Shown: positions 1,207 to 45,513, counted from the first letter of the stretch. The stretch: DNA of 64,000 bases from Candidatus Brockarchaeota archaeon (GCA_017601395.1 JAFNIQ010000002.1:6990-70989); one strand, 5' to 3'. The notes: a model not told the origin generated them from the sequence alone. Translations and numbers: made by a program.

Positions 1207-2295
1207 ATGAGGATTGATTGCGATGCTCTAATAGTTGGAGGCGGGCCCTCCGGTCTTTCAACAGGCTTATTCATTTCTAAAAAGGGTTTTAAAACCATAG
1301 TTCTTGAGGAGCATAATGAAGTAGGCAGGCCTGAGCAGTGCGCTGGTCTTGTCAGCTGGAGGATAGGCGGGCTTCCGCAACACCTTGTTTTAAACAGGGT
1401 TGACACCGCGAGGTTCTGCCTCGGGAAGGAGAGTTTTGAAGTATACTCTAAGAAAGATATGCTCGTGATAGATAGAGCTGGCTACGATAAGCATCTCGCT
1501 GAAAATGCTTTGGCAGAGGGGGTTGAGATTAGGCTCGGCGAGAGGGTGGTGGGGCTAAAGGAAGGATGCGTGGTCACGAGTAAGGGAGGCCATTACTCTG
1601 GAAGAATCCTTGTCGGGGCCGATGGGCCTAACTCTATTGTTGCAAGGCTGACTGGTTTAAAGCAGCCTGATAACCTTCTCTTCGCGCTTCAATGCGTGGC
1701 CAACGGTGTCTTCGAACAGGATGTTGTCGAGCTGAGGTTTGACCCAGAGTTTTCCAAGGATGTTTTCGCCTGGATCATACCTTTAAGCAGGAACAGGGCG
1801 AGAGTGGGTCTTTTAACCAGTGGCAATCCTTGGCCGAGGCTTAGGCTGCTCCTGAAGAGGCTGAACATGGAGTCTAGTTGCGGCAGGTTTGTAGGGGACT
1901 CTATAAGATTCGGGATGATGAGCAGAACCTCCGCCAGCAGGGTTATTCTAGTCGGCGATGCTGCGTGCCAAGTCAAGCCTTTCTCGCTAGGCGGTCTTGT
2001 CTACAACAGGATCTGCAGTAGGATCGCTGGGGATGCTTGCGCAGCCGCCCTTGAAAGAAACCTTTTCGACGGAGGCTTCATGGCTGAAACATATGATTCT
2101 GTCTGGAGAAAAACTATTGGTGGAGCGTTGGAAAAAGGGCTCAAAATGAGGAAGCTTTTCAACATCATGAGGCGAATACCTTTTTCGTTCACGTTGACGA
2201 GGATTTTGGGGTTAAGCCTACTAGCAGGCAGGGTTCTCGACCCTGATTTTCTTAGAAACAGCCCTGTCTGTCAAAACGGTTGCGAAGCGTTTTGA
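1207..2295 (+). CDS. FAD-dependent oxidoreductase of the geranylgeranyl reductase family
   Basis: N-terminal GxGxxG FAD motif (ALIVGGGPSGLSTG) and the GGR-family LVGDAAcqvkPfsGGL motif (ILVGDAACQVKPFSLGG). Confidence 0.75.
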   Translation: MRIDCDALIVGGGPSGLSTGLFISKKGFKTIVLEEHNEVGRPEQCAGLVSWRIGGLPQHLVLNRVDTARFCLGKESFEVYSKKDMLVIDRAGYDKHLAENALAEGVEIRLGERVVGLKEGCVVTSKGGHYSGRILVGADGPNSIVARLTGLKQPDNLLFALQCVANGVFEQDVVELRFDPEFSKDVFAWIIPLSRNRARVGLLTSGNPWPRLRLLLKRLNMESSCGRFVGDSIRFGMMSRTSASRVILVGDAACQVKPFSLGGLVYNRICSRIAGDACAAALERNLFDGGFMAETYDSVWRKTIGGALEKGLKMRKLFNIMRRIPFSFTLTRILGLSLLAGRVLDPDFLRNSPVCQNGCEAF

Positions 2296-2317
2296 AAAGG
2301 CTTATTAGGGTTCAGAT

Positions 2318-3139
2318 TTGTTTTCGAATAGTCCTGTGAAAATCAGGGAGATTGAGTGTAAGACACTGCTGAATAGGAGTGCTATTGCAGACTACTGTGT
2401 AAACCCGTATGTAGGCTGTCAGCATGGATGTAGATACTGCTATGCTGCAGGAATAACCTTTAGGTTTAGAAGAAGTAGAGAAGAGTGGGGCGAGTTTCTC
2501 GACGTTAAGACTAATGCCTTAAAAATCCTTTCAAGCGAGGTTGAGAAGAAGAAGGCTGGAAAAGTATACTTGAGTTCGCTCACCGATCCTTATCAGCCGG
2601 TTGAGAAGGAATACGAGTTGACGCGGAAAATTCTTGAAATGCTTGTTCAAAAAGGGTTTCCCATTATTGTTCAAACCAAGTCGAACCTTGTTGTGAGAGA
2701 CTTGGATGTTTTGAAGAGGAACGAGCTTAATGAGGTTGGGGTTACGGTGGTTACGTTGGACGAGGAAGTCTGGAAGGATTTCGAGCCGGCTTCCTCAAGT
2801 CCTGAGGAGAGGCTTGAAGCAATCAGGCTTGCCAAAGAGAAAGGTTTGAGAACATATGTTTTCTTCGGACCAATACTTCCATTTCTTTCAGAAACCGATT
2901 TAGAAGGTTTTTTGAAGAGGTTTAGAGAGGCGGGGGCGGACTATGTTTATGTTGACAGGCTTAACCTGAGGCCAATGGTTTGGAGCATGGTTTCAAAAGT
3001 TGTCTTGAAAAAATATCCGGAGCTATATGGTGAATGGAGAAGAATATTATTTTCAGAATCATCTTACTATGATGAAGTTAAGAAGAAAGTCTTTGAAGTT
3101 TCTAAAAAAATCGGTTTGGAGCTGGTTTTCTGCTATTAA
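2318..3139 (+). CDS. radical SAM protein, SplB/DNA-photolyase-like (COG1533 type)
   Basis: CxxxCxxC cluster (GCQHGCRYC) near the N-terminus, which is the radical SAM 4Fe-4S motif. Length and context resemble SplB-like proteins. Confidence 0.7.
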   Translation: MFSNSPVKIREIECKTLLNRSAIADYCVNPYVGCQHGCRYCYAAGITFRFRRSREEWGEFLDVKTNALKILSSEVEKKKAGKVYLSSLTDPYQPVEKEYELTRKILEMLVQKGFPIIVQTKSNLVVRDLDVLKRNELNEVGVTVVTLDEEVWKDFEPASSSPEERLEAIRLAKEKGLRTYVFFGPILPFLSETDLEGFLKRFREAGADYVYVDRLNLRPMVWSMVSKVVLKKYPELYGEWRRILFSESSYYDEVKKKVFEVSKKIGLELVFCY

Positions 3140-3227
3140 ATACCTGTAGCGCGCTACGACCCCATAGAGGCGACGCCCCTCGCCTCAGTCGCGGAGGTGT
3201 CAGAATAGGTTTTTAAATGCGTATGGT

Positions 3228-5733: not shown

Positions 5734-6111
5734 TTATCTTTTTACCATCCTGATTAAGCTCTTGAACTGCCTCTTCAAATCCTTTAAATCATCTATAAAA
5801 ATCCTGAATCCCACGGTTACAGTGCTTGAACCAAGCTTCCAGGGGATGCTGGCAAGGCTTGTCTCATATATGAGCATCACTAGGTTTTGGGCTGAAAAGA
5901 CTAATAGGCCGAGTGCAGCAACTATTGCCCCGATCAGCCAGTGGTGTATTCTAAGCCCCCTTACTGAGAACGCGTAATTCTTGGTTTTAATCCGGTTTAG
6001 AACTATTCTGGTAGCCTTATCCATTGCCCAGAATAGTGTTATGGACTGCGTTGTGCTGAAGAGGATTACTGGAACATCCACCGGTAGCATGTTAGAATTT
6101 TTAACGCGCAT
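5734..6111 (-). CDS. small hypothetical membrane protein
   Basis: 125-aa ORF with 1-2 predicted TM helices (HHWLIGAIVAALGLLVF). It has the same orientation as the flanking ROK and GT2 genes and competes with a weaker + strand ORF at 5981..6244. Confidence 0.3.
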   Translation of the reverse strand: MRVKNSNMLPVDVPVILFSTTQSITLFWAMDKATRIVLNRIKTKNYAFSVRGLRIHHWLIGAIVAALGLLVFSAQNLVMLIYETSLASIPWKLGSSTVTVGFRIFIDDLKDLKRQFKSLIRMVKR

Positions 6112-23932: not shown

Positions 23933-25147
23933 TCAGGATCCCGGTAATCCTTTCTCCATCTTCTGTTCTAACTCGTCCCAGAGATAAGTGATCTTTTCAC
24001 GTTTTCCAAGGGCTACTTCAATGGCCTGCTGTATATCCGGATCGTATGCTGGACAATAATCTACAAAGATCCCCTTGTCTCTATATTCTTGGAGACACCT
24101 GCCTATAATAATGTTTATACGCCCGTCTAAAGGCTTAGCACCCCTACCGATAACAATCGCCATTTTAGGGCCTTTCGCAATCTGTCTTATGCCAACCTTT
24201 TTTATAGCTATGGATAGTTTTTTCTCGCAGCCTGAGCACACATTCCCTTGGACTAGCTTAACGTTCCTAGCCTGCTTAAGAAGTCGTGCGGGTTTTGCAA
24301 GAGGCATTACAAAAATTTTCCTCGAAGCTTTTCCCTCTTTAACGAGCTGCTCAAGCGTTATTCCCACCAGCTCTATTTTCTTTGGATCTATCTCTCCCAA
24401 TCCGAGCTCGTGGGCGTAGCGAATATGCTCGATGCTCATCGGGTTAAAACCCATTCTAAAACAGGCTATAGCGTCTGTGGCAACAGGATCGTCGCCGGCT
24501 ATTATAAGCCCCAGGGGGGAAGCCTCATTATAGCCGACTCCTATTAAACCGTCTATAATGGTTAATCTCACTCGTAGGATCCTGTTTAGTTCTGCAAGCG
24601 TCCAATTCAGGCTGTTAAGATGACCGAGCCGCCGTTGAGTGGGTCCTATAACACCCCACATGTTTTTCAACCCCAGCGTAACATTGCATAATCCATGGTG
24701 CTTCATGACCGGAAGACTAACTATGAGGTCGGCATCCATTACTGTTTTAGCGATTCTTAACGTAGGGCAGCCTTTCGCATCCGGAACCTCCACGGTTACC
24801 TGTTCATCCCTACGGAAATCAACAAACCTCGCTCCAGCTCTCTCGGCGACTTCTCTTATCCGCATTTTTTCAAAGACTTCGCTGGATATTGTTCCGACAA
24901 GAGGGTTCTCGCCAACGATAACGTTGCATCCAATATCCGTAAATATTTTAGAGACAGCGTAAATTATACGGGGGTCGGTGGCTTCAACATCTGTAACGTT
25001 TAAAATATTGGGTTTCACAACCACCTTGTCACCATGTCTTGCAAATGCCTCTGGGCCTCCTAATAGTTCTATGCTGTGCTTCACACCGCTGAAAACATCT
25101 TCGTCAAAACATTTTCGCGGAACCTTTACAACGGAAACTTTTGCCAA
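23933..25147 (-). CDS. DUF362 domain-containing protein
   Basis: N-terminal KVSVVKVPR...VVVKPNI, which is the characteristic start of DUF362 proteins, and a C-terminal CxxC (CSGCEKK). Confidence 0.6.
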   Translation of the reverse strand: MAKVSVVKVPRKCFDEDVFSGVKHSIELLGGPEAFARHGDKVVVKPNILNVTDVEATDPRIIYAVSKIFTDIGCNVIVGENPLVGTISSEVFEKMRIREVAERAGARFVDFRRDEQVTVEVPDAKGCPTLRIAKTVMDADLIVSLPVMKHHGLCNVTLGLKNMWGVIGPTQRRLGHLNSLNWTLAELNRILRVRLTIIDGLIGVGYNEASPLGLIIAGDDPVATDAIACFRMGFNPMSIEHIRYAHELGLGEIDPKKIELVGITLEQLVKEGKASRKIFVMPLAKPARLLKQARNVKLVQGNVCSGCEKKLSIAIKKVGIRQIAKGPKMAIVIGRGAKPLDGRINIIIGRCLQEYRDKGIFVDYCPAYDPDIQQAIEVALGKREKITYLWDELEQKMEKGLPGS

Positions 25148-33629: not shown

Positions 33630-36629
33630 TTGGTAAGTAGGCGTGTAGGAAGTAATTTATTGCTCGTCGTTCTAATTCTCATCGCATTCTGTTTTTCAGC
33701 TATTTCCTCAGTAAGATGGATGCCTACTATAATGGTTTCTGGAACGCGATATGGTGAAATAGAATTAAATATTGGTTGTGGCAGCCCAAGTATATCATAC
33801 TTCGGGAACTACCTATTTGTTGAGCTTGATGGTTTTCATTATTTTGGTGAACCTGGCAATCCGGAGCTTCCGACTAAGTTTTTAGACGTGTTGCTTCCAC
33901 CCGATGTGAATACAACCACCATAGATATATGTGTTTTACGGGATGAAAGCTATGAGATGAATGTGACTGCAGAAGTAATTCCGGCGCCACCTTTGGCATG
34001 CGGTGAAGCAGTGGATTGGGGTATCGGCAAGGATATACAGAATGGTAAGAATCTTCTCGTATACGGGAGAGGAGAATATTATCCGGATAACGCTGTAGAG
34101 GTTTACCAGGTTTCTAATAGAGGAATATATGTGTTTGCAAGAATCCGGTATAATCCCATCCAGTATAACCCGTTAAAAGGGAGGCTTAAGATACATGAGA
34201 ATATATCTTTCAAGATCACTTATCAGCTTACAGGTAGACGAGCAGCCATTGTTAAAAACACGATAGTTGAAAAAATCGTTGAGAAACAATTTGTAAACTG
34301 GAATAGCGCTAAAGAATGGTATTTGCCGTCTTTTCCGGCATTGAACTCCCAGTACGATTATGTTATAGTCACTACGAAGGCTATAAAAACAGGAAGCATG
34401 GAGCTAAACAATTATGTGAATCATCTTCAGAACACTAGAGGCTTCAAGGTGAGGGTGATCACAGAGGATGATTACGGGCCGGAAACTGGGCAGCAGAGAG
34501 CAGTAAACATAAGAAACTGGTTGAAGAACAATTATCTAACCCTGGGGGTCAAGTATGTTCTTCTAATAGGCAATCCTGATCCAGATGACCCGAGTAATCC
34601 GTCTGACTCTTACGGTGATGTCCCAATGATGATGTGCTGGCCGAGGGTTCAGGGTTATGATACTGTGCCCACGGACTATTTCTATGCTGACCTTACTGGA
34701 AACTGGAATACCGATGGGGACAGTTATTATGGGGAATATGGTCAAGATACTGGCGTGGACTTCACTCCGGAGGTATATGTAGGAAGAATACCTGTTTACA
34801 ATGATGATTACGCTACGCTAGATGAGGTTCTCCGAAAGACGATGAGCTACGTGTTCTCAGGAACAGGATGGAGAAACAGGATTATGCTTCCAGTAGCTAT
34901 AAGCAACTATGCGAATGAAGATAACCAGGGCTGGCAAAGAACAGATGGTTTAGACTTGCCTAAATATGTGGTTGAAAACATTCTGCCTGGGGGCTGGACG
35001 CACTATGTTCTTTACGAGAGAGCTGGACGGGACCCGGTGCCTGAGGCTGCGCCATATTACTCAGCACCATTAACTAAGGCTAACTTGGTCAACGAGTGGA
35101 AGAAGGGTTACGGAGTGGTTTTCTGGTTCGGCCATGGGAGCAGCCAAGGAGCCTTCAGAAAGTATTGGAGTTTTGACGATGGTGACGGGGTGCCGGAGTC
35201 CGGCGAGATGAGTTGGCAATTATTCTTCGGCTCTTCTGATACTCCTGGATTGAACGGCTCCGCACCCTCATTCATATTCCAATGCTCCTGTAACAATGGT
35301 TATCCGGAGGATGAAAATAACCTTGGCTATGCTCTTCTTAAGAATGGTGCGGTAGCAACTGTTTCAGCCTCGAGGGTAAGCTGGTATATAGTTGGCTACT
35401 GGTGGCCCCGTATGCTTGCGGATAATGTTGAAATAGGGTACCGCTACGTTGAGAAACTGTTAAAGGATAAGCTTAGTGCAGGCGTAGCTCTCTACGAGGC
35501 TAAGGGGATGCTGCCTCATGATAGCAGTGTTTGGTGGATGAACCTGTTCTGCTTCAACCTTTACGGTGACCCAAGTCTCTCACTGTTCAACGCTTTATCT
35601 AAGATTACTGTCGACTCGGACCCACGGGGCTCAGGCCTCGTGAAGGTTGATGGACAACTTATCACGACACCTGTAGTCTTCACATGGGAGGAGGGCTCAA
35701 CCCACCTGCTGGAAGCAGTCTCACCCATGGACTTAGAGAATGGGACGAGGTATGTCTGGTATGGCTGGAGCGACGGAGGAGCCCAAAGCCACAATTACAC
35801 TGTTACAAGTTACAACACTACTGTAAAAGCCTTCTTCAAGAAACAGTATAACGTCACTTTCACGGTTAAGCCACTGAGCTGCGGAACCACATCGCCTTCC
35901 GGCTCGGACTGGTACAACGAGGGCTCAACAATACAAATATCCGCCATCGCTGACCCTGACTACGTCTTCAAAAATTGGTTTTCAAACACGTCGAAGATAA
36001 CTATAGCTGACCCCTATTTGCCGAACACTAATGCAACTATAGGCGGTCCGGGAACTGTGACGGCCAACTTCACTGTTACGGTTACAAGCTTAACGTTGAA
36101 AGTGGTGGACAGCATGGTTCAAACAGGAGTAGTAAATCTAACAGTCAAAATAATATCGCTTAACAACATTACTGGTGCAGGGTATGCGGTAGACGCCACT
36201 AATCCTCTAACTCTAATACCTTCTCCAGCAGACGGCTCCTGGGATTCAAGCATAGAGTACATCAGAATAAGCTTCAACGGTTCAACCTATGCCGATGGAT
36301 TCCACACGATCTACGTTAGGGCTAACGATACGGAGAATACGAGTAACTGGCTCACTTTACGTTTCCACGTCAGGAGTCTGGTTAAGAGGTACAACCTTAT
36401 CGCCCTAATCCTCAAACAATCTTCGGGATACTCGGCTGAAACGCTTGGGAAAGCGATAGGGCCGGAAGCAACGTTAATAGCAAGATGGGATATTGGAACG
36501 CAAAAGTTTAAAGGCTATTCGCCCGGCATCAGCAGCCCGGCGGACGACTTTCCAGTAGAGCAGGGCTTCGGATACTTCGTGTACTTGAATTCTCCGCGCA
36601 AATTCGTGGAGCTGGAGGTAGAGGGATGA
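33630..36629 (+). CDS. secreted peptidase C25 (gingipain-like, clan CD) family protein with a propeptide and C-terminal Ig-like/beta-sandwich domains
   Basis: Signal peptide. C25-propeptide-like segment GFHYFGEPGNPELPTKFLDVLLPPD. Catalytic His in VVFWFGHGSSQGAF and catalytic Cys in SFIFQCSCNNGY (clan CD His-Gly ... Cys dyad spacing). The C-terminal NLYGDP motif is shared with the 55109..59161 protein. 999 aa. Confidence 0.65.
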   Translation: MVSRRVGSNLLLVVLILIAFCFSAISSVRWMPTIMVSGTRYGEIELNIGCGSPSISYFGNYLFVELDGFHYFGEPGNPELPTKFLDVLLPPDVNTTTIDICVLRDESYEMNVTAEVIPAPPLACGEAVDWGIGKDIQNGKNLLVYGRGEYYPDNAVEVYQVSNRGIYVFARIRYNPIQYNPLKGRLKIHENISFKITYQLTGRRAAIVKNTIVEKIVEKQFVNWNSAKEWYLPSFPALNSQYDYVIVTTKAIKTGSMELNNYVNHLQNTRGFKVRVITEDDYGPETGQQRAVNIRNWLKNNYLTLGVKYVLLIGNPDPDDPSNPSDSYGDVPMMMCWPRVQGYDTVPTDYFYADLTGNWNTDGDSYYGEYGQDTGVDFTPEVYVGRIPVYNDDYATLDEVLRKTMSYVFSGTGWRNRIMLPVAISNYANEDNQGWQRTDGLDLPKYVVENILPGGWTHYVLYERAGRDPVPEAAPYYSAPLTKANLVNEWKKGYGVVFWFGHGSSQGAFRKYWSFDDGDGVPESGEMSWQLFFGSSDTPGLNGSAPSFIFQCSCNNGYPEDENNLGYALLKNGAVATVSASRVSWYIVGYWWPRMLADNVEIGYRYVEKLLKDKLSAGVALYEAKGMLPHDSSVWWMNLFCFNLYGDPSLSLFNALSKITVDSDPRGSGLVKVDGQLITTPVVFTWEEGSTHLLEAVSPMDLENGTRYVWYGWSDGGAQSHNYTVTSYNTTVKAFFKKQYNVTFTVKPLSCGTTSPSGSDWYNEGSTIQISAIADPDYVFKNWFSNTSKITIADPYLPNTNATIGGPGTVTANFTVTVTSLTLKVVDSMVQTGVVNLTVKIISLNNITGAGYAVDATNPLTLIPSPADGSWDSSIEYIRISFNGSTYADGFHTIYVRANDTENTSNWLTLRFHVRSLVKRYNLIALILKQSSGYSAETLGKAIGPEATLIARWDIGTQKFKGYSPGISSPADDFPVEQGFGYFVYLNSPRKFVELEVEG

Positions 36630-38515
36630 TGAAGAAGGCTTTCTACTTAGCCTGCATATTCATTCTATGTGGGATAATCTTAACCGTCATAAATTTCGTT
36701 AGGGCGCAGGTACCTGTAAACGTGTGGGGATATGTCTATATGCCTGATGGGACTCTTGCAGTCGGCGCTTCTGTTTCAATTTCTGGTGGAGGAGACTCTA
36801 AATCAACAACTACTGGAACCGACGGCAAATATGGGCCAGTTACGCTAACTGTTTCTTCTGTTCCCGTGAATATAGTCGTAAGTGCATCGAAAGACAGTTA
36901 TTCAGGTAGTGCATCTGCCATAGGCGAGGGTACGGTACAGATAGACATACATCTTTCAGCAGCGCCTCCACCCCCGCCTCCTCCGCCTTCCCCGCCACCA
37001 TCGAGAAAGCTGGTTAGTATCCAGCTTAGCGTCCCGAGCGAGGCTGCTGTTAACGCCAGTGTCAGGATAATTGGGAAGGTTAATCCAAGTGTTTCCCAAT
37101 TATACTTGAAGACTAGGGATCCGAAAAATATTCTGAATGAATATCAGTTGTCGGTTGCCTTAAACGGAAGCTTCTCGTTCGACTTTACGCCTACGATTTT
37201 AGGCGTCTATAGGATTTCAGCGTTTTTTCCTGGCGACTTAGAGTATGAGCCTGCTTCAACACCCGAGTACTCTCTTCGGGTGAAATCAAGGTCGATTCTT
37301 AATCTGACTTTAAGCCCGACCGTGGTGGTAGCAGGATTCGAGAACATTAGTATAAGCGGGAGGCTTTATCCTCCTAGTGTTCAAAACGTTTTACTCTACT
37401 ATTCCTTAGACAATGCTTCATGGATTCTCTTCGCCGAGTTGAATGCTACGACGGGGGTTTTATCAATAGTTTGGAAGCCGAGGGTTTTCGGAGACGTCTT
37501 CATAAAGGCAGAGTGGACTGGGAACGATACTTATACCGGCTCGGTTGCATACGGGAGGTTTCAAACAGTGTTGCCAAGCGTATGCATGTTGCGAGCATGG
37601 GTTGAGAACTCTCCAATCAGGATTGGGGAGGAAGTACGGGTCAACGGGGTTCTTATTGGTGTTGCGCATCCTGAAACCGCCGAGTTAACTATGCGTATTT
37701 ATAATGATGGGAGGGAGGTTGAAACCTTTAGGCTGAATCCTTCTCCAGACGGGGTTTTCACCGTAAGCTATAAGCCAGGGTCGCCCGGGGTCTATGTTCT
37801 GCTTCTCGAGGCTAGTGGAGTAAGATTGTTGAGGGCTAGCAATGTTACGACAGTCGTTGTCTTAGGAGAGGTGAAGCTTAGGGCGGTTAACTCCACAGGC
37901 GGACTACTGGGTGAAGCAGTAGTGGAGTTGAAGCATAATAGTGAAATTGCAAGCTCAGGAGCAGGTGAATTGAAAATCGTCCTGAATCTCGGGGATTACG
38001 AGGTCATCGTAAAGAGTGATGGCGCTGAAGTATTCAAGGGTTATCTCAGTCTAACGAATAAAGGTGTCTCCCTGATTTCCCTTAAACAGAGTGCAGAGTT
38101 TCCGCTTCCCATAACAAGCAGGCCTTTGATAATTGAATTGAGGACTGAAACCTATTTCCTGAACGTTCACGTGGTCAATGAATTCGGCGAGCCGATGGGA
38201 AACGTTGAAGTCAAGATAGCTCCATCTCCGCATCCCGTGACAAGTAGGCCTTTAAACGAATCATCGGTTTTTCAAACTACCGGGAGAACAGATGCTGAGG
38301 GCCGCATTGTTTTTTCAAACATTCCTGCTGGAAACTATACTGTCAGCACTTCTGCTGAAAGCAAGAATGTTAATCTTATTCGAAACGAATCTGTAACGCT
38401 AAAAGGATCGGGGGTTAACTTGAGGATAGTTCTTATTCTTGTCGCTGTTGCTTTAATAGTTTTATGCTTCACTACTTTCTACCTTGCTAGAAAGAAGCCT
38501 GTCATGGAGAAGTAG
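36626..38515 (+). CDS. cell-surface protein with carboxypeptidase-regulatory-like beta-sandwich repeats, a poly-Pro linker and a C-terminal TM anchor
   Basis: It overlaps the upstream stop by 4 nt. It has a signal peptide, TGTDGKYGPV (a CarboxypepD_reg-like motif), PPPPPPPPSPPPS, and a C-terminal hydrophobic helix plus RKKP. Confidence 0.6.
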   Translation: MMKKAFYLACIFILCGIILTVINFVRAQVPVNVWGYVYMPDGTLAVGASVSISGGGDSKSTTTGTDGKYGPVTLTVSSVPVNIVVSASKDSYSGSASAIGEGTVQIDIHLSAAPPPPPPPPSPPPSRKLVSIQLSVPSEAAVNASVRIIGKVNPSVSQLYLKTRDPKNILNEYQLSVALNGSFSFDFTPTILGVYRISAFFPGDLEYEPASTPEYSLRVKSRSILNLTLSPTVVVAGFENISISGRLYPPSVQNVLLYYSLDNASWILFAELNATTGVLSIVWKPRVFGDVFIKAEWTGNDTYTGSVAYGRFQTVLPSVCMLRAWVENSPIRIGEEVRVNGVLIGVAHPETAELTMRIYNDGREVETFRLNPSPDGVFTVSYKPGSPGVYVLLLEASGVRLLRASNVTTVVVLGEVKLRAVNSTGGLLGEAVVELKHNSEIASSGAGELKIVLNLGDYEVIVKSDGAEVFKGYLSLTNKGVSLISLKQSAEFPLPITSRPLIIELRTETYFLNVHVVNEFGEPMGNVEVKIAPSPHPVTSRPLNESSVFQTTGRTDAEGRIVFSNIPAGNYTVSTSAESKNVNLIRNESVTLKGSGVNLRIVLILVAVALIVLCFTTFYLARKKPVMEK

Positions 38516-38552
38516 GAAACGATTAAATCATGGCTAATGCAGGATATTTTTA

Positions 38553-38924
38553 GTGGTGCGGATGAGGAGGGAAGGCAACCTGTGGCTTGGCGCATTCTTG
38601 GGGTTCATAATAAACTCTGTTCTAGGCGCGTACTTTCCGGTGATCGGCCCTTTAATCGGCGGCTTCATATCCGGCTTAATGGCTGGAGGAGGACCTGGCA
38701 GAGGAGCCCTAGCCGGGTTTCTAGCAGGAGTGTTTGGCGGAATAATTGCAACCATACTTCTAGTCATCGGGTTCGTTGCTGCCGGAGGCCTGCTTGGAGG
38801 GGTTCTCGGCGGGCTACTCGGTCTTCTAGGAGGCCTGGTTGCTGGCGGAGCAATCATAGTATCGCTGGCATTCGGATCGATAATGTCAATAATCGGTGGA
38901 GCTATTGGTGGAGCAGTAGGTTAG
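38553..38924 (+). CDS. glycine-rich small membrane protein (DUF5518-like)
   Basis: 123 aa, extremely G/L/A/I rich with GxxxG repeats. The alternative ORFs in the other two frames are R-rich and P-rich artifacts of the GC-rich triplet periodicity. Confidence 0.45.
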   Translation: MVRMRREGNLWLGAFLGFIINSVLGAYFPVIGPLIGGFISGLMAGGGPGRGALAGFLAGVFGGIIATILLVIGFVAAGGLLGGVLGGLLGLLGGLVAGGAIIVSLAFGSIMSIIGGAIGGAVG

Positions 38925-38999: not shown

Positions 39000-40547
39000 T
39001 CAGTATCTGCTTTCATGCCTATTCTGTGGGCTTATCTCAATGTTCATGTTTATTCTTTTCGCAAACCTGTTGAGCTTCTTATTGTACTTCTTGACAAGTA
39101 TGGGAACGTCCTCCTTATTTACATACAGGATCAAACTGTCCCCCTCAATCCTGATGTCGAAGTCTGAAATCTGGTTGCGCACTATCGCTTGCACTTCCTC
39201 CTTAAGCTTCTCCTCATATCCTGTCTTCTTCTTGCGAACCGGGACTATGAAGGTTTGTTCTCCGAAGACGTAGAGCTCGTACTCCGCCTCCCCCGTCAAG
39301 AAGTTTTTAACGACTATCGTCGGCCTAGCTAGGTCCGCGTTTCTCATCCCCTTAGGGATCTTCACAACTGTTTCAAGCGTGTATATTTTCGAAACCTCGC
39401 CCTCCTTCATAAATATGACTGTGTCTATGATGGAGGGTATGAGCCCAAGGTCAGTCCTCCCGGTGAAGCGTTGAATAGCATCCATGGGTGTTGTAGCATG
39501 TATGACGCCGACCATCCCTATGCCTGCAAGCCTAAGGTCTATGAAAATGCTGAAGTCATTAGTATCTCTAAGCTCATCGTATATCGTGTAGTCCGGTCTG
39601 CTTAACAGTAATACGTCGTGAAGCTCGCTGGGCTCGGCTGCTGTCTTAGAATACTGTGTCACGTCAGGAGGGAGTTGAAGGTCTCTCGGGCTTTCTATTG
39701 TTTTAACAACCTTGTTCATCGACCTGTAGAACTCTGCGAGGGCCTGGGCGAAAGTGGACTTCCCCATTCCAGGTGCTCCAGCTATGAGTATTCCTTCAGC
39801 CTGAGTCTCAAGCCTCTCGATAAGCTTGTCAGCTAAATTATACTCGTCAAGGCTTCTCTTAATGAGTGGCTTAACAGCGGTTATTTCAAGCCCGTCTGAG
39901 AAGGGTGGTCGAGTAATGACTATTCTAAGGTCTTTAAGCTGTATTATTGTCGAGCCAGACTTATCTATTTCCACAAAACCTTGGTTTGTAAACTGGACTC
40001 TCTCCATTATGTCAGCTATTATTGATTCAAGCTCAGACTTACTGATCGGTTTCTCTCCGACATCTCTGTAAACCCATCTGCCAGGAATCCCCTCCTTAGC
40101 CTTCGGGATAACGTTCTCCTTGAGATGTATAGACATTATGCCTGGTTTAAAGAACTCTTCAAGCTTAGCCTTTCCAACCGGGCTAAGGTAGATCGCCTCA
40201 ATCCCCATTGCTCTCGCAGTCTTAGCCAAAACCGGGTCGCATGAAACCAGAGTGCCGCCTGTGTTCATCGCTAGGTCTCTGAGAACTGTTGAAACCTCTT
40301 CCGGAGTATTGGAAGAGCCTATAAACTCGACCTCCAGCCCTTTCTCTGAGGCTGCATCCCTAAGGGATTTTAAGCCGTTTAACCCTGTTTCATCGCCGAA
40401 TCTAGCTTTTCTCTCGAATTCCGAGACAATGGCCTTATGCACTATTATCCTACCAGTCACCTCACCGTTTTCAACTGCTCTAGCAGCCACTCCGGTAAGT
40501 ATTGAAGCAGGGTCTAGAACATAGACTTTAACCGCATTATTACTCAT
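39000..40547 (-). CDS. PIN-domain PilT-family ATPase (archaeal COG1855 type) with a C-terminal KH-like region
   Basis: N-terminal PIN-like fold (VYVLDPASIL), Walker A GAPGMGKST and a Walker B/Asp box. 515 aa. Confidence 0.75.
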   Translation of the reverse strand: MSNNAVKVYVLDPASILTGVAARAVENGEVTGRIIVHKAIVSEFERKARFGDETGLNGLKSLRDAASEKGLEVEFIGSSNTPEEVSTVLRDLAMNTGGTLVSCDPVLAKTARAMGIEAIYLSPVGKAKLEEFFKPGIMSIHLKENVIPKAKEGIPGRWVYRDVGEKPISKSELESIIADIMERVQFTNQGFVEIDKSGSTIIQLKDLRIVITRPPFSDGLEITAVKPLIKRSLDEYNLADKLIERLETQAEGILIAGAPGMGKSTFAQALAEFYRSMNKVVKTIESPRDLQLPPDVTQYSKTAAEPSELHDVLLLSRPDYTIYDELRDTNDFSIFIDLRLAGIGMVGVIHATTPMDAIQRFTGRTDLGLIPSIIDTVIFMKEGEVSKIYTLETVVKIPKGMRNADLARPTIVVKNFLTGEAEYELYVFGEQTFIVPVRKKKTGYEEKLKEEVQAIVRNQISDFDIRIEGDSLILYVNKEDVPILVKKYNKKLNRFAKRINMNIEISPQNRHESRY

Positions 40548-40637: not shown

Positions 40638-41423
40638 TCAGCCACAGATCTCTCTAAGCTTCTGAATACAGGATAATGCCGCCAGATAGCTTGTCCTAGG
40701 GTTATCCGGGTGCGGAACATTCTCAACCAGTATCCTTAGATTGGAAACCTTGGATTCAACATCTATCTCGTGCATTATCTCTTTCCTAGTTGGATCTGCT
40801 ATTATTCTAACTAGAACCCCTGACTTAGAGTATAAGGCTAGTGCTGCCGCCACGTTCACGCTTTTTGGGAAATGCGTTAAAGCGTCTTCCACGGGCCCCT
40901 CGTAAACCAGCGTCGGCTCCCTAATTTTATCTAGTTCAATCCCCTTCTCCTTGAAATAGTTGGAATAGGCTAATGCTTCAGGAGGCTTCCTCGTGGTTAA
41001 AACCATCCTGTCCACGCCGACTAGGCTTATGGCTCGGATCGCATCCAGTCCAGCGATTGCTCCCGCCGGAACATGTATTCTGCGAGTGTTTTCCTCATAT
41101 ATTTTCCTTGTCTCAGGGAAAAGAAGCCCCCCTATGCTCATCACGAGAACCTCTTTCCCGGCTTCAACAATGGGCTTAAGGTATTTTAGAACAGCCTCGT
41201 CGCTTGCAGCCTCGACGATAACCTCGAGCCTCCTGTCTTTCAACATCTCCTCTATTCCTTCCAGAACCTTCGGCTTGCTCCTCAGCTTCTCAACCAGCTT
41301 CGACGCAGCCTCCTTACGAGAATCGTAGACGTAAACCAGTTTCGCGTTAACCTTTCCCTCGTCCACAGCCTTGGCTATGAGAGAGCCTATTGCACCACAC
41401 CCTATCAACCCTATCCTCCTCAT
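40638..41423 (-). CDS. nadX: L-aspartate dehydrogenase
   Basis: MRRIGLIGCGAIGSLIA N-terminal Rossmann motif. It is 261 aa and lies in an operon with nadC and nadA. Confidence 0.8.
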   Translation of the reverse strand: MRRIGLIGCGAIGSLIAKAVDEGKVNAKLVYVYDSRKEAASKLVEKLRSKPKVLEGIEEMLKDRRLEVIVEAASDEAVLKYLKPIVEAGKEVLVMSIGGLLFPETRKIYEENTRRIHVPAGAIAGLDAIRAISLVGVDRMVLTTRKPPEALAYSNYFKEKGIELDKIREPTLVYEGPVEDALTHFPKSVNVAAALALYSKSGVLVRIIADPTRKEIMHEIDVESKVSNLRILVENVPHPDNPRTSYLAALSCIQKLREICG

Positions 41424-42274
41424 TTCTCAACCCTCGTGACTTCGAGCGATATGTCTACTGCTTTCGCTGAATGCGTTAGCTCTCCTGAGCTTATTATATC
41501 CGGGCCGGCTTCCACATATTCTTCAAGATTTTCAAGCTTCACTCCGCCGGAGACCTCTACTAGAACCCTGCTTCTCAACCCTTTCTCTCTAAGCATTTCA
41601 ATCGTCCTCCTTACTTTTTCAGGGGTGCAATTGTCAAGCATGATTATGTCTGCACCCGCCTCAGCAGCTTCCACAGCGTCTTCAGCCTCAGCCACCTCGA
41701 TCTCTATCTTCTTGCTGAAGCTCGCCAGTTCCCTGGCCTTCTTAACAGCTTCACCAACCGAGTTGAAATACTTTAGATGGTTTTCCTTGATGAGAATCAT
41801 GTCTGACAGGTTCAGCCTATGGGTGTCCCCGCCCGCGGCTGCAATAGCCTTCTTCTCGAAATACTGGAAGCCGGGTTTAACCTTCCTGGTTGCAGCTATC
41901 TTCAGGTTCGGGTTTATTCTTCTCGCCTTCTCAACAAAGGCCTTGGTTAGCGTTGCCACTCCAAAGGCTTGGGAGAGAATGTTCAGCAATAGTCTTTCGA
42001 TCTCCATGAGCCTACGCATATTGCCTTTAATCCACATTACTTGATCCCATTTTCCGAATTCCTCGCCGCTCTTCTTTAAAACCCTAACCGTGAAGCCCAT
42101 CTTCTCAAGTATCATAGCGAGATCCTCACAGCAGGCTGCAACACCCTCCTCCTTAGCTATTACAACCGCTTCGCACGTTACTTGCGGAGGTATTATCTCG
42201 GAGGTCACGTCCCAATAGGGAATATCCTCGGAGAGCCATTCGATAAATTTTCTGAAAACTACTTCCTCGACCAA
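41420..42274 (-). CDS. nadC: nicotinate-nucleotide pyrophosphorylase (carboxylating) / quinolinate phosphoribosyltransferase
   Basis: Typical QPRTase sequence (DVTS..., ATRKV.PG, IMLDN). It overlaps nadX by 4 nt. Confidence 0.9.
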   Translation of the reverse strand: MVEEVVFRKFIEWLSEDIPYWDVTSEIIPPQVTCEAVVIAKEEGVAACCEDLAMILEKMGFTVRVLKKSGEEFGKWDQVMWIKGNMRRLMEIERLLLNILSQAFGVATLTKAFVEKARRINPNLKIAATRKVKPGFQYFEKKAIAAAGGDTHRLNLSDMILIKENHLKYFNSVGEAVKKARELASFSKKIEIEVAEAEDAVEAAEAGADIIMLDNCTPEKVRRTIEMLREKGLRSRVLVEVSGGVKLENLEEYVEAGPDIISSGELTHSAKAVDISLEVTRVEK

Positions 42275-43194
42275 GGTGTTTCAACCCCCAGAAGAGTAAA
42301 ACTTCTTTCAAGAACTCTCCTAGCCTTTTCAGCAAGCTTCTCATCGACCTTTACAAGAGTCTCGCCGCTAACGAGGCTCCTGTATACTTTTTCAAGCGTT
42401 ATCTTCTTCATGTTGGGGCATATCGTGTCTTTACTGACAGGATAAGCCTCCTTACCGGAATAAAGCTTTGAGATTCTGTGAATCACCCCGTTCTCAGTGC
42501 CTATTATAAAACGCTTTGCATCAATCTCTCCCACCGCTCTTATTATTTGGCTAGTGCTGCCCACGAAATCCGCCAGCCTCCTTGTTTCAGGCGGGCACTC
42601 CGGATGCACAAGTATCTTCGCATCCGGCATCCTTTCCTTAATGGATAATATTTTATCCGGTGTGATCCCTATGTGAACCGGGCAGTAGCTGTTAAGTGGA
42701 ACAGCAATAACCTCCTTCCGCGTGGTTTCAGCAACATAGGACGCTAGATTCCGATCTGGTCCGAAAAGGATTTTCCCCGCGTCAAGCTTCGAAACCAGCT
42801 TAGAGGCACTGCTGCTGGTAACCACGTAGTCAGCCATAGACTTTACTTCGACGAATGAATTCACGTAAACTACTAGTGGTGCATCCGGGTTTCTCCTACG
42901 GTATTCTTCAACCACTGTGGGGTCAAGCTGCCAAGCCATCGGGCAGATGGAGCTTGGCTCAGGCGTTAACACTGTCTTACTAGGGTTCAGCACAGCCGCC
43001 TGCTCAACCATGAAATCTACGCCTGCGAAAACGATGGTTTTCGCATCGGTCTCCATGGCTTTGACCGAAAGTTCCAGGCTGTCGCCGACGAAATCAGCGA
43101 CATCCTGCACCTCAGGCCTCTGATAATTATGGGCTAATACTACGGCCCCAATGTCTCTCGCCCTTTCCCGTATTTTACGGCTAAGGTTTTCCAT
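42259..43194 (-). CDS. nadA: quinolinate synthase
   Basis: AHNYQ start motif, conserved Cys ligands (ICPMA, YCPVH, ICPNM). It overlaps nadC by 16 nt. Confidence 0.9.
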   Translation of the reverse strand: MENLSRKIRERARDIGAVVLAHNYQRPEVQDVADFVGDSLELSVKAMETDAKTIVFAGVDFMVEQAAVLNPSKTVLTPEPSSICPMAWQLDPTVVEEYRRRNPDAPLVVYVNSFVEVKSMADYVVTSSSASKLVSKLDAGKILFGPDRNLASYVAETTRKEVIAVPLNSYCPVHIGITPDKILSIKERMPDAKILVHPECPPETRRLADFVGSTSQIIRAVGEIDAKRFIIGTENGVIHRISKLYSGKEAYPVSKDTICPNMKKITLEKVYRSLVSGETLVKVDEKLAEKARRVLERSFTLLGVETPWSRK

Positions 43195-43214
43195 CAGCTT
43201 CTCTTGAAGCCTAA

Positions 43215-43291
43215 AACCCTCTTATTTAAGGGGTTCTATTAAGGCAATAATTGCATAGATGCTTCATTAAGAGGCAAAATAGAGTTGCAAC
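43215..43291. promoter_or_regulatory. divergent nadA / nadK-like intergenic region with three short palindromes, which are candidate operator sites
   Basis: AACCCTCTTATTTAAGGGGTT (imperfect inverted repeat, 43215-43235), GCAATAATTGC (43244-43254) and GTTGCAAC (43284-43291). All were seen directly in the 152-nt divergent spacer. Confidence 0.35.
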
Positions 43292-43346
43292 GTTTTTAAA
43301 CCGCTGAAAGCAATAAATAGCCCTTCCAATAAACTACTAAAGCCAG

Positions 43347-44345
43347 TTGAACATAGTGTTAGCTCCAGCGGGGTTCGACCGTGGTCTCCTTAGGGAGTGC
43401 TTGAGAACAGTTAATCGCGTCGGGGTGGAGGTTACGCGCGTCAAGCGTCTCGAAGAGCTTGAGAAGCTTAACGAGGGTCTTCTCCTCATCTTGGGTGAGG
43501 ATAAGGATGTTCTGAAAGCGTTACATCACGTGAAATCTAGGGATGTGCTCATCCTGGGGGTTAGCAAGACTGAGAATAATAGTTTCCTGATGGAGACAAC
43601 GCTTGAGAGGCTCGGCGACGCTTTAAGAGCTTTTCTAAGAAGAGAGTATAGCGTGGAGTATTCTTCAAGGCTTAAGGCTGTTGTGGATGATTCTGAAACA
43701 CCGTGTGCGCTAAACGAGCTGGCAATCTTCCCAAGGAAAAGTGCCACAATACTTGAATACAGCCTTTACGTTGACGGCGAGTTCGTCTGGAGGGATATAG
43801 GCGACGGCCTGATAGTTTCCACACCCATAGGTTCAACGGCGTATGCTCTTTCGACAGGAGGACCAATAATACATCCGCAAGCCAAGGTGGTAGGCATAGT
43901 CCCGGTTAACTCTTTAAACCTTACTAGAAGACCCTTGGTAACCCCTATTGAAAGCCTCATAGAAATCCGAGACATAGTCAGCAATTCGGCTTGCGAAGTC
44001 ATCGTGGATGGGGGGTATAGAATGAGGATAACTGACAGGGTCGTCGTTAAGAAGGGTGAAGACGCTGGCTTCGTAAGGCTCAGCGAAGCGCTTCTCGCAA
44101 GAAGGCTCGAGAAGAAGGCTAGGATGTCTCTCGACATAAGCAGTCTGCCTCCTAGTGCTAAACTAATTTTGAAGGTTCTCGAATACGAGGGGGCTTTAAC
44201 CCAGAAAGACATTGTTAAGAAGACGATGCTCCCCGCGAGGACTGTGCGACACGCTCTCGCAATACTTGTCGGAAACAACTTCGTCAAGAAAAGGCCTTTA
44301 ATAAGGGATCCGAGGCAGGATCTCTACTATATTGAGTCCAAATGA
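43347..44345 (+). CDS. NAD kinase-like protein with a degenerate GGDG motif and a C-terminal winged-helix DNA-binding domain
   Basis: Conserved NAD kinase C-half (NELAIF, DGLIVSTPIGSTAYALSTGGPI). The N-half LLILGEDKDVLKAL replaces the catalytic GGDG(T). A C-terminal extension of about 80 aa (LILKVLEYEGALTQKDIVKKTMLPARTVRHALAILVGNNFVKKRP) is a wHTH. Confidence 0.7.
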   Translation: MNIVLAPAGFDRGLLRECLRTVNRVGVEVTRVKRLEELEKLNEGLLLILGEDKDVLKALHHVKSRDVLILGVSKTENNSFLMETTLERLGDALRAFLRREYSVEYSSRLKAVVDDSETPCALNELAIFPRKSATILEYSLYVDGEFVWRDIGDGLIVSTPIGSTAYALSTGGPIIHPQAKVVGIVPVNSLNLTRRPLVTPIESLIEIRDIVSNSACEVIVDGGYRMRITDRVVVKKGEDAGFVRLSEALLARRLEKKARMSLDISSLPPSAKLILKVLEYEGALTQKDIVKKTMLPARTVRHALAILVGNNFVKKRPLIRDPRQDLYYIESK

Positions 44346-44373: not shown

Positions 44374-45513
44374 ATGTTTTTAGAAAGGCCTATGGGAAGC
44401 GAGATAAGGGTTACTGACTCGGCAAGATCCCATAGAGTTGAGCTTCTTCTGGATGAACTGGGAGGGTCGCCGGTTAGCTGGCTCATCATCAATGATCTTG
44501 AAGTAAAAGTTGGGAAAACCTTCCTGAAAATGGGCGGAGTAGGTGGAGTTGGAACGCTCGAGGAACACAGGATGAAAGGATATTCTAGAAAGGTTATGGA
44601 GTTTTCAATCGAATACATGGTTAAAAACGAATATGATGTTTCAATGTTGTTCGGCATACCTGACTACTATATTAGATGGGGTTATGCTTCAACGCTTCCC
44701 AATTGCAAGATAACCATGCCTTTAAGAAATGCTGAGAGGGCTAGGCCTGGGCTTAAAGCCCGCCCGATGGAGAAGGACGATGCTGAAGCTATCTTGAAAA
44801 TTTACGAGTTGGCTAACGAGCATAGGACGGGCCCCCTTAAAAGATATAGGGGTGAATGGTTCAGATTTAGAAAGGGAAGCTGGTGGGGAGTACCTGCTGA
44901 CGGAACAGTCTTCGAAGATGAGTCTGGAAGGATAGTTGCATACTGTGCTTCTGACCGTTGGCCGAGGGTAATGAGGATAACTGAGGTGGGTGCTGTAGAC
45001 GCTGCCCTGTATGAGCATGTGCTCCGCTACGCGTGCGACACTGCTTTCCAGAAGAAGGCTAGTGAGCTTGAAATATACGTCCCGTTTGACCATCCTTTCG
45101 CCGAGCTTTGTAAAAGCCTCGGCTGCACGATTAGCATTGACTATCCATATGCTTCAGACGGCATGGGGAGAATCATTAATCTCAAGTCGACCTTCGAGAA
45201 GCTTGTTTCAGTATTTGAGGACCGTTTGGAAAAAGCATGTGTGAAAGATCTGGCTTCGCAAATATCTTTTAAAACCGACATAGGCATTGCTACTCTCGAA
45301 GTTTCCGAATCCGGGGTGTCTCTTTCAGAAACCGTGTCGGCGAACTGGGTTGAGCTCCCGCAATGGGTGTTGATGCAACTCATTCTTGGATATAGGGATC
45401 CGAAGAACGTCTTAGTCGACCAAGCCGTGAAACATAAGGGGAAGGTTGAGAAAACTTTAGAAACATTGTTTCCACCAGGAAATCCCCATATATGGCACTC
45501 AGACTGGTTTTAG
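44374..45513 (+). CDS. GNAT family N-acetyltransferase, Eis-like with a C-terminal SCP2-like region
   Basis: GNAT motif A (GGVGGVGTLEEHRMKGYSRKVM) and a total length of 379 aa, as in Eis-like GNAT-SCP proteins. Confidence 0.55.
   Translation: MFLERPMGSEIRVTDSARSHRVELLLDELGGSPVSWLIINDLEVKVGKTFLKMGGVGGVGTLEEHRMKGYSRKVMEFSIEYMVKNEYDVSMLFGIPDYYIRWGYASTLPNCKITMPLRNAERARPGLKARPMEKDDAEAILKIYELANEHRTGPLKRYRGEWFRFRKGSWWGVPADGTVFEDESGRIVAYCASDRWPRVMRITEVGAVDAALYEHVLRYACDTAFQKKASELEIYVPFDHPFAELCKSLGCTISIDYPYASDGMGRIINLKSTFEKLVSVFEDRLEKACVKDLASQISFKTDIGIATLEVSESGVSLSETVSANWVELPQWVLMQLILGYRDPKNVLVDQAVKHKGKVEKTLETLFPPGNPHIWHSDWF

Follow-up and report, generated by a model that had tools for sequence, protein, structure and literature searches.

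The subject of this analysis is a gene in a 64,000-nt stretch of DNA from Candidatus Brockarchaeota archaeon (GCA_017601395.1 JAFNIQ010000002.1:6990-70989), referred to here in its full length as the window. It encodes a protein in which an NAD kinase (NadK)-like body carries an additional C-terminal winged helix-turn-helix (wHTH) domain. This fusion protein is probably an NAD-metabolism transcription factor with an NAD kinase as its scaffold, and would bind paired palindromes and sense NAD(P)(H) or a close metabolite. It retains the residues of the NAD site, its gene is divergently paired with nadA, nadC and nadX, and a palindromic motif, GGCAA-N3-TTGCC, recurs across phyla beside the gene and beside NAD genes.

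The three nad genes (Table 1) each exceed the curated NCBIfam cutoffs and overlap in an operon-like manner, by 16 nt between nadA and nadC and by 4 nt between nadC and nadX. The fusion gene, whose TTG start is kept in relatives according to the spacer and locus alignment, is divergent from them across a shared spacer of 152 nt (43195-43346). The open reading frame (ORF) map and the profile scans agree in all these respects, gene set, coordinates, divergent pairing and spacer length, with the first-pass annotation of this DNA.

Residues 122-235 of the fusion match the C-terminal NAD kinase domain (NAD_kinase_C, PF20143; E 4e-27) while the Pfam scan gave no match to the N-terminal domain model, PF01513. 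With the 18 NCBIfam NadK models the protein scores 50-140 bits, below all of the cutoffs (211-493 bits); the best equivalog, NF002984, gives 139.6 bits for a cutoff of 326. An AlphaFold2 (AF2) model built on 85 homologues (mean predicted local distance difference test score 88.7) nevertheless contains a complete two-domain NadK body, followed by a long helix and the winged helix. In the PDB, Foldseek places only NAD kinases among its top 50 matches (E about 1e-23, TM-score on target 0.80-0.87), and the TM-score with canonical NAD kinases is 0.78-0.87 overall.

The winged helix is carried by no solved NadK among the PDB matches (phmmer and Foldseek). In the model it has a canonical wHTH topology (helices 269-281, 286-293 and 297-309, with a wing formed by strands 314-317 and 325-328), and the last 65 residues match HTH_9 barely over threshold (24.7 for 23.4 bits). 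MarR_2 (19.0 for 27 bits), MarR (18.2 for 24.6 bits) and TFIIE all match below threshold, and phmmer against the PDB retrieves AF2008 (1sfx) and a MarR protein weakly (E about 0.3). The appended winged helix that had been predicted is supported by the modelled fold and by profile. Its description as MarR/TrmB-like holds for the three helices and wing and for the weak MarR matches, but not for membership of the MarR family as judged by profile. Across TACK and Asgard archaea no other part of the protein is conserved as strongly as this domain, with the pattern PPSAKLILKxLEYEG...LPxRTxRxAL...RDxRQ recurring in different phyla and with P268, S270, K272, L295, R298, T299, L307 and R320 invariant in 85 sequences.

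The fusion architecture was found in more than 100 clusters of proteins of about 330 aa, labelled as Brockarchaeota, "Thermoproteota archaeon", Aigarchaeota, Nitrososphaerota (including ammonia oxidisers), Metallosphaera, Thorarchaeota and Njordarchaeia, and represents a family conserved in both TACK and Asgard archaea. Source databases call it "NAD(+)/NADH kinase". Members from Brockarchaeota and "Thermoproteota archaeon" are 72-95% identical to the window protein. PF01513 is still matched by most members that are not Brockarchaeota-like and is lost in the clade of the window. Taxonomic labels within this clade are inconsistent (Brockarchaeota, Thermoproteota archaeon, Thaumarchaeota archaeon): a "Thaumarchaeota archaeon" record (L173-L175, P0499) is about 86% identical to the window in DNA and shows full synteny with it over about 14 kb.

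The neighbourhoods of the gene point repeatedly to NAD. A divergent nadA-nadC-nadX set accompanies it in the clade of the window (L081-L084, L089, L173-L175), in Thermofilaceae-like loci where the regulator is only 42-45% identical (L003, L090) and in L171, a relative of the Metallosphaera-type protein. In Thorarchaeota (L007, L169) nadA alone is divergent from the fusion, and in Njordarchaeia (L170) the divergent gene encodes nicotinate phosphoribosyltransferase (NF006415, 441 bits for a cutoff of 243). In L086, L172 and L001 it encodes an orthologous major facilitator superfamily (MFS) transporter, and the same transporter gene follows the fusion immediately in L012. This transporter matches best to the aromatic-acid:H+ symporter family and PcaK; NiaP, which transports niacin in bacteria, is an MFS protein of the aromatic-acid:H+ symporter type (PMC2330245). 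De novo synthesis, salvage and probable niacin uptake together form the gene set that is under the control of NiaR, NrtR and NadR in bacteria. Locus L012 itself (CAYFYB010000002.1) is labelled Methanomassiliicoccales and holds a TACK-type NadK-wHTH gene of 46% identity, with the NiaP-like MFS gene after it. This may mean that the family extends to Methanomassiliicoccales; otherwise the contig has been misbinned.

A candidate operator was found in the spacer. Three palindromes had been noticed there, and all three are present (43215-43235, 43244-43254 and 43284-43291). Singly none exceeds chance, since 93%, 46% and 67%, respectively, of dinucleotide-shuffled spacers contain one or more palindromes of that type, and only one of the three, GCAATAATTGC, is conserved in relatives. 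The other two are rejected as operators: both AACCC...GGGTT, which contains the presumed TATA box and transcription factor B recognition element (BRE) of nadA, and GTTGCAAC are broken even in L174, a relative of 86% identity, and are at chance level in shuffled spacers. Alignment of the spacer with those of three relatives of 72-75% protein identity leaves three invariant blocks, TATTTAAGGGGTTCT (43222-43236), GGCAATAATTGCA (43243-43255) and GGCAAAA (43272-43278). In L174 both GGCAA blocks are unchanged and the TATA block is one base off (GTGG for GGGG).

GGCAATAATTGCA, an instance of GGCAA-N3-TTGCC, stands 6 nt from the BRE-like block of nadA. The presumed nadA promoter has its TATA centre some 31 nt ahead of the nadA ATG, from which a leaderless mRNA, or one with a short leader, would be expected. 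On the other side, the third, weak site overlaps the presumed BRE/TATA, AATAAATA (43312-43319), of the fusion's own promoter, whose TATA centre lies about 32 nt before the TTG start; this promoter is assigned from archaeal promoter geometry. A sigma-70 promoter scan found nothing, which is irrelevant for an archaeal host. L003 and L090, the Thermofilaceae-like loci, show TATA-GGGG-N6/7-GGCAA as well. Other matches to the motif in the window (1822, 5851, 5917 and 25133) are regarded as background, as they lie inside ORFs and away from NAD genes; that at 25133 sits at the extreme 5' end of a DUF362 ORF. Two of them, at 5851-5863 and 5917-5929, have one mismatch each, are 66 bp apart and fall inside a single 125-aa ORF, whose product has hydrophobic stretches and whose gene is flanked by ROK-family and glycosyltransferase genes.

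Outside the clade of the window, about seven more lineages, from Thermoproteota, Thorarchaeota and Njordarchaeia, have the motif next to their orthologous fusion gene (Table 1). The first-pass annotation had suggested looking for the same fusion and the same palindromes beside nad genes in related genomes, and this association does extend across phyla, for the GGCAATAATTGCA-type motif only. The sites lie 17-29 nt before the start of the fusion gene or beside the promoter of the divergent gene for nadA, nicotinate phosphoribosyltransferase or the NiaP-like MFS protein. In the Thorarchaeota L169, one of the two sites is perfect. Paired sites 29-32 bp apart occur in L007, L169, L172, L001, L170, L088 and L171, the second being often weaker; the corresponding pair in the window runs from 43243 to 43272. 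Over the 352 kb of fusion loci, the background frequency of matches that differ at one position or none is 5.7e-5 per nt, and the only three perfect matches are all located no more than 102 nt upstream of a fusion gene. A site with at most one mismatch is present within 150 nt upstream in 6 of about 12 lineages, for a chance of 0.0085 per lineage (binomial tail 3e-10).

Several findings weigh against this interpretation or limit its reach. The motif was derived from the window, L003 and L007 and later lineages were scanned with it; it was defined after three lineages had been seen, which makes the enrichment statistics partly post hoc. In the Thermofilaceae-like sites the right half is degenerate (GGCAAATATGTCA and GGCAAAAGTGGCA). 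At nadA the site is upstream of the BRE/TATA, which is not the classical position for an archaeal repressor. Finally, the loci of ammonia-oxidising Nitrososphaerota have neither NAD neighbours nor the motif beside the fusion, and the same is true of the Aigarchaeota loci examined, so that a regulatory role may not span the whole family. In the ammonia oxidisers the fusion follows a PfkB-family kinase gene in a two-gene operon (16 loci: L002, L004-L006, L008-L010, L092, L093, L095, L097, L099, L100, L104, L106 and L109), and GGCAA-N3-TTGCC does not occur upstream of this operon. Matches in the thaumarchaeal loci L004, L006 and L009 were rejected as operators because they lie inside genes. The pfkB gene often overlaps that of the fusion, for example in L006, where it occupies 1311-2186 and the fusion gene 2179-3210.

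Whether the kinase body is still catalytic is a separate question. GGDG, an NE/D motif and conserved region II are found in all NAD kinases (PMC8553519). The C-terminal half that had been reported as kept is indeed so, with the PF20143 match, the NE pair (residues 123-124) and DGLIVSTPIGSTAYALSTGGP (residues 153-173), a region II that includes D153 (Asp189 of Mycobacterium tuberculosis Ppnk), T164 and Y166. At the GGDG position, phmmer against the PDB pairs LILGEDKDVL of the fusion with VVVGGDGSML of Pseudomonas aeruginosa NadK. GEDK retains the first glycine (G50) and the equivalent of the catalytic aspartate (D52); the second and fourth glycines are replaced by glutamate and lysine. In the family alignment G50 and D52 are invariant (85 of 85 members), the second position is variable (glycine in 30 of the 85), and the fourth is arginine or lysine in 64 members and glycine in only eight. 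GEDK had been presented as replacing the catalytic GGDG: the two do align, but the loss was overstated given the invariance of the aspartate and first glycine. An intact aspartate at the aligned position in the only NAD kinase of the genome had been named as a finding that would speak against the regulator, and the aspartate is present as D52. The second motif of the N-domain, GINxGxLGFL, has become GVSKTENNSFL. Neither this motif nor the glycine-rich phosphate loop is therefore kept in the fusion.

In Ppnk, Asp85, Asn159, Glu160, Thr200 and Tyr202 are vital by mutagenesis, the catalytic aspartate of NAD kinases takes the proton from the 2'-OH, and the enzymes are dimers or tetramers whose NAD site is completed by a residue of the adjacent subunit (Asp189 in Ppnk; PMC8553519). 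The fusion has all five of the vital positions (D52, N123, E124, T164 and Y166) and, since D153 is kept as well, its dinucleotide pocket is intact. Because the catalytic aspartate and all mutagenesis-defined residues are retained, the term "kinase-dead" is not established. Loss of kinase activity is plausible.

Other NadK-like proteins also have a degenerate GGDG (GDDA or GNDN): P0142 (267 aa), P0196 (240 aa) and P0277 (320 aa, P0196 cluster). P0142 and P0196 are without a winged helix, and P0277, at 320 aa, may carry one. Loss of the glycine-rich loop may therefore extend past the fusion family.

That the protein is a pure sensor, a pseudoenzyme whose pocket only reads NAD(P), was the version given in the first-pass annotation, and it is a serious possibility to which we nevertheless give somewhat less than even weight. 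The glycine-rich loop is degraded and a conserved basic residue stands in its place, PF01513 is not matched, the NadK equivalog scores are low, and the lineages that bear the operator mostly have no PF01513 match either (P0001-16, P0028, P0065, P0067, P0091, P0119). There is also a precedent, in that some NrtR members are without Nudix activity (PMC6800001). Against it stand the conserved catalytic aspartate and mutagenesis-defined residues, although the aspartate would also be expected if it only contacted the 2'-OH of NAD, and the fact that no co-resident canonical NadK was demonstrated among the NadKs listed. Within the window, tblastn with seven canonical NadKs detected no second canonical enzyme, the window being silent on the whole genome. 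Canonical GGDG NadKs were listed from Desulfurococcaceae, Acidilobaceae, Ignisphaera, Zestosphaera and Ignicoccus (in a representative search and a profile search with two Thermoproteota-type NadKs), and no assembly paired one with a fusion among the GGDG NadKs listed and at least 12 fusion loci. Since such enzymes do occur in Thermoproteota, a separate housekeeping NadK is plausible.

These same observations enter into the possibility of a bifunctional protein of the "trigger enzyme" kind, one that functions as an NAD kinase, perhaps with altered use of the phosphoryl donor, and also binds DNA as do RbkR, NadR and BirA. It overlaps with the transcription factor proposed here, from which it differs solely in the claim of catalysis, and we consider it possible but rather doubtful. 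The invariance of D52 and G50 in all 85 members, the presence of all vital Ppnk residues and the retention of the entire two-domain fold speak for catalysis, as do the PF01513 match in most non-Brockarchaeota-like members and the metabolic-looking PfkB operon, without operator, in which the ammonia oxidisers keep the fusion; in addition, no separate canonical NadK was demonstrated in any fusion-bearing genome among those listed. On the other hand, GGDG is said to be universal in NAD kinases (PMC8553519) whereas here the second glycine is variable and the fourth is mostly arginine or lysine, GINxGxLGFL is replaced, and the clade of the window fails to match PF01513 and reaches less than half of every NadK equivalog cutoff. 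The plausibility of a separate housekeeping enzyme in Thermoproteota also argues against it.

An ordinary housekeeping NAD kinase, with a winged helix for protein or RNA contact, a nadA gene nearby through pathway clustering and a palindrome belonging to another factor, would agree with the database label and with the chance-level palindromes, but is very improbable, since the motif accompanies the fusion also in loci without a nad gene close by (L086, L088, L172), lies 17-29 nt before its start in five to six lineages, a signature of autoregulation, and persists across phyla alongside near-invariant residues of the predicted third wHTH helix, and since the fusion fails every NadK equivalog cutoff.

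For the proposed transcription factor, the following mechanism can be envisaged. The kinase body would form dimers or tetramers and act as a ligand-sensing module, its ligand being NAD(P)(H) or a closely related metabolite of the pathway; this is suggested because the dinucleotide pocket is kept and, in NAD kinases, is completed by the neighbouring subunit. The C-terminal winged helices of the oligomer are predicted to bind GGCAA-N3-TTGCC, usually as two sites 29-32 bp apart. In the window the sites would act between the divergent promoters, one abutting the BRE/TATA of nadA-nadC-nadX and the weaker ones reaching toward the TATA box of the regulator, so that their occupancy would set transcription of both the de novo NAD operon and the regulator gene. 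Ligand occupancy could be coupled to the state of oligomerisation, with two or four winged helices facing the paired palindromes, a possibility raised by the need of the NAD kinase pocket for a neighbouring subunit. The conserved arginine or lysine at the fourth glycine, normally the site of the ATP phosphates, might favour a phosphorylated ligand such as NADP, although this is speculation.

The sign of the regulation is not fixed; repression when the cofactor is plentiful is the version we would favour. A site over the transcription start is the usual geometry of repression in archaea. At the regulator's own gene autorepression is the simplest reading, because a site 17-29 nt before the start codon would lie over the transcription start, given a TATA box about 30 nt upstream. 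At nadA the position of the site just upstream of the BRE/TATA is compatible with repression or activation, by blocking or recruiting transcription factor B, and repression is plausible there by analogy with NiaR, NrtR and NadR. Of the ligand-responsive repressor beside its target operon that had been put forward initially, the regulator on a kinase scaffold paired with an NAD operon is supported by the family, the linkage and the motif; the repressor sign is plausible without being fixed.

Table 1. Features of the locus in the window and instances of the motif at loci of relatives. Window positions are counted from the first nucleotide of the window.
Feature	Position	Strand	Evidence or remark
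NAD-kinase-like/winged-helix fusion gene	43347..44345	+	332 aa, TTG start; ORF map, PF20143 and HTH_9, AF2 model
GEDK at the GGDG position, residues 50-53	43494..43505	+	Alignment to P. aeruginosa and Y. pestis NadK
NE short motif of the NAD site, N123-E124	43713..43718	+	Counterparts in Ppnk (M. tuberculosis): Asn159/Glu160
Conserved region II DGLIVSTPIGSTAYALSTGGP, residues 153-173, dinucleotide-binding loop	43803..43865	+	Invariant or near-invariant columns; Ppnk mapping
Long linker helix, residues 249-265, kinase body to winged helix	44091..44141	+	DSSP on AF2 model
C-terminal winged helix-turn-helix, residues 266-332	44142..44342	+	HTH_9 profile, AF2 model, family conservation
nadA, quinolinate synthase	42259..43194	-	PF02445, E 5.6e-104; NF006878, 370.6 bits (cutoff 294)
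nadC, quinolinate phosphoribosyltransferase	41420..42274	-	TIGR00078, 293.3 bits (cutoff 198.4)
nadX, L-aspartate dehydrogenase	40638..41423	-	TIGR03855, 213.6 bits (cutoff 206.55); Asp_DH_C and NAD_binding_3
Presumed nadA promoter core GAACCCC-TTAAATAA, BRE-like block and TATA box	43222..43236	-	TATTTAAGGGGTTCT invariant in four aligned sequences
Candidate operator GGCAATAATTGCA	43243..43255	.	Invariant in L081, L082, L083 and L174 while flanks diverge
Second, half-conserved site GGCAAAATAGAGT	43272..43284	.	Only the GGCAAAA half conserved; 29 bp from first site
Weak third site AGCAATAAATAGC	43309..43321	.	Direct repeat of AAGGCAATAA; partly conserved in relatives
Motif in L086, GGCAATAATTGCC	27 nt before start codon		Perfect match
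Motif in L088 (Metallosphaera), GGCAAAAAATGCC	29 nt before start		Corrected start, matching family N-terminus
Motif in L170, TGCAAATTTTGCC	-27		
Motif in L172, AGCAATTGTTGCC	-22		
Motif in L001, AGAAATTGTTGCC	-22		2 mismatches
Motif in L171, GGCAAAATATGCA	-17		2 mismatches; from corrected start, 9 nt downstream of annotated one
Motif in L012, GGCATATCTTGCC	Between fusion stop codon and MFS gene		
Motif in L007 and L169 (Thorarchaeota)	One site beside each divergent TATA box		A pair of sites in each, spaced by exactly 29 bp

Downstream of the regulator on the same strand, a gene for a 379-aa GNAT protein (Acetyltransf_9; 44374-45513, +) begins 28 nt past the stop codon. The order regulator-GNAT is conserved in relatives (L083, L089, L173-L175) and, in view of this synteny and the common strand, the two genes may be co-transcribed. 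Acetylation has been reported to control bacterial NrtR (PMC6800001). Directly downstream of nadX lies a gene for a 515-aa ATPase with a weak T2SSE match (39000-40547, -), which holds the same position in L082, L083, L089 and L173 with 72-89% identity. Further away, two large neighbouring ORFs of 999 and 629 aa (33630-38515, +) have counterparts in relatives that match CarboxypepD_reg and Peptidase_C25; the 629-aa product is surface-protein-like, with hydrophobic segments at both its N- and C-terminus and a run of eight prolines within a 15-residue Pro/Ser stretch. Between these and the ATPase gene, 38534-38924 contains a Gly-rich ORF of 123 aa (+) with hydrophobic stretches and, on the opposite strand, a Pro/Arg-rich ORF of 107 aa which is probably a mirror-image artefact of the glycine codons.

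NAD synthesis has been described as under transcriptional control only in bacteria, and the fusion provides a concrete archaeal candidate with a defined putative operator and a predicted regulon that includes de novo synthesis, salvage and probable niacin uptake, in a family that is widespread and includes Asgard archaea. If this is true, an essential housekeeping kinase fold has been reused as a metabolite sensor, and the conserved arginine or lysine in place of the fourth glycine of GGDG would be a clue to the ligand that is read. A broader proposal, which we advance tentatively and with confidence just short of even, is that these proteins are a fourth class of regulators of NAD homeostasis and the first in archaea: NAD(P)-sensing, with an operator and a reading helix near-unchanged across Thermoproteota, part of the Nitrososphaerota and Asgard archaea, with ligand binding in a dinucleotide pocket at the dimer interface coupled to the binding of paired sites, and in some lineages, such as the ammonia oxidisers, doubling as the NAD kinase of the cell. 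NadR, NiaR and NrtR were named in 2019 as the only described NAD regulator systems (PMC6800001). In line with what had been supposed at the outset, we found in the full-text literature neither an NAD-kinase/winged-helix protein nor an archaeal NAD regulator.

Enzyme-derived cofactor regulators are already known, and the fusion has what defines them, a pathway-enzyme domain joined to a DNA-binding domain, together with sites beside nadA, pncB and NiaP-like genes; it would be a new member with an NAD kinase fold, a reading to which comparative genomics gives good support. Its closest parallel in archaea is RbkR, a riboflavin kinase/wHTH regulator of Thermoproteota which is an active kinase and autoregulated (Rodionova et al. 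2017, PMC5397151). Both combine a cofactor-pathway kinase with a winged helix, lie beside biosynthesis and uptake genes for their own cofactor and are predicted to control these by way of palindromic sites. RbkR differs in its unrelated kinase fold, its N-terminal wHTH and its proven activity, whereas the fusion is of NadK type with a C-terminal wHTH and a degenerate phosphate loop. With canonical NadK (Archaeoglobus fulgidus 1SUW, M. tuberculosis 1U0R) it shares the two-domain fold, the NE motif, region II and the catalytic aspartate, and it is set apart from them by GEDK in place of GGDG, by loss of the second N-domain motif and by the extra 80 residues of linker helix and wHTH. Archaeal regulators of the MarR/TrmB type have the same helix-helix-helix-wing topology, a dyad-symmetric operator and weak similarity through the MarR and MarR_2 profiles, but these models are below threshold and the fusion would dimerise through its kinase body, not through terminal helices of MarR type. 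NadR, NiaR and NrtR resemble it in the regulon predicted here, nadA/nadC, pncB salvage and a NiaP-type transporter (PMC2330245, PMC2330246, PMC6800001), in their autoregulation and palindromic operators, both of which are predicted for the fusion, and in their enzyme-derived effector domains (NMNAT/RNK in NadR, Nudix in NrtR). They are however bacterial and are related to the fusion neither in sequence nor in domains, in which Pfam and NCBIfam scans revealed no 3H, Nudix, HTH_3, HTH_11, NMNAT, RNK or NrtR wHTH domain. The resemblance is thus functional only, and a sensor with an NAD kinase fold is unreported among them.

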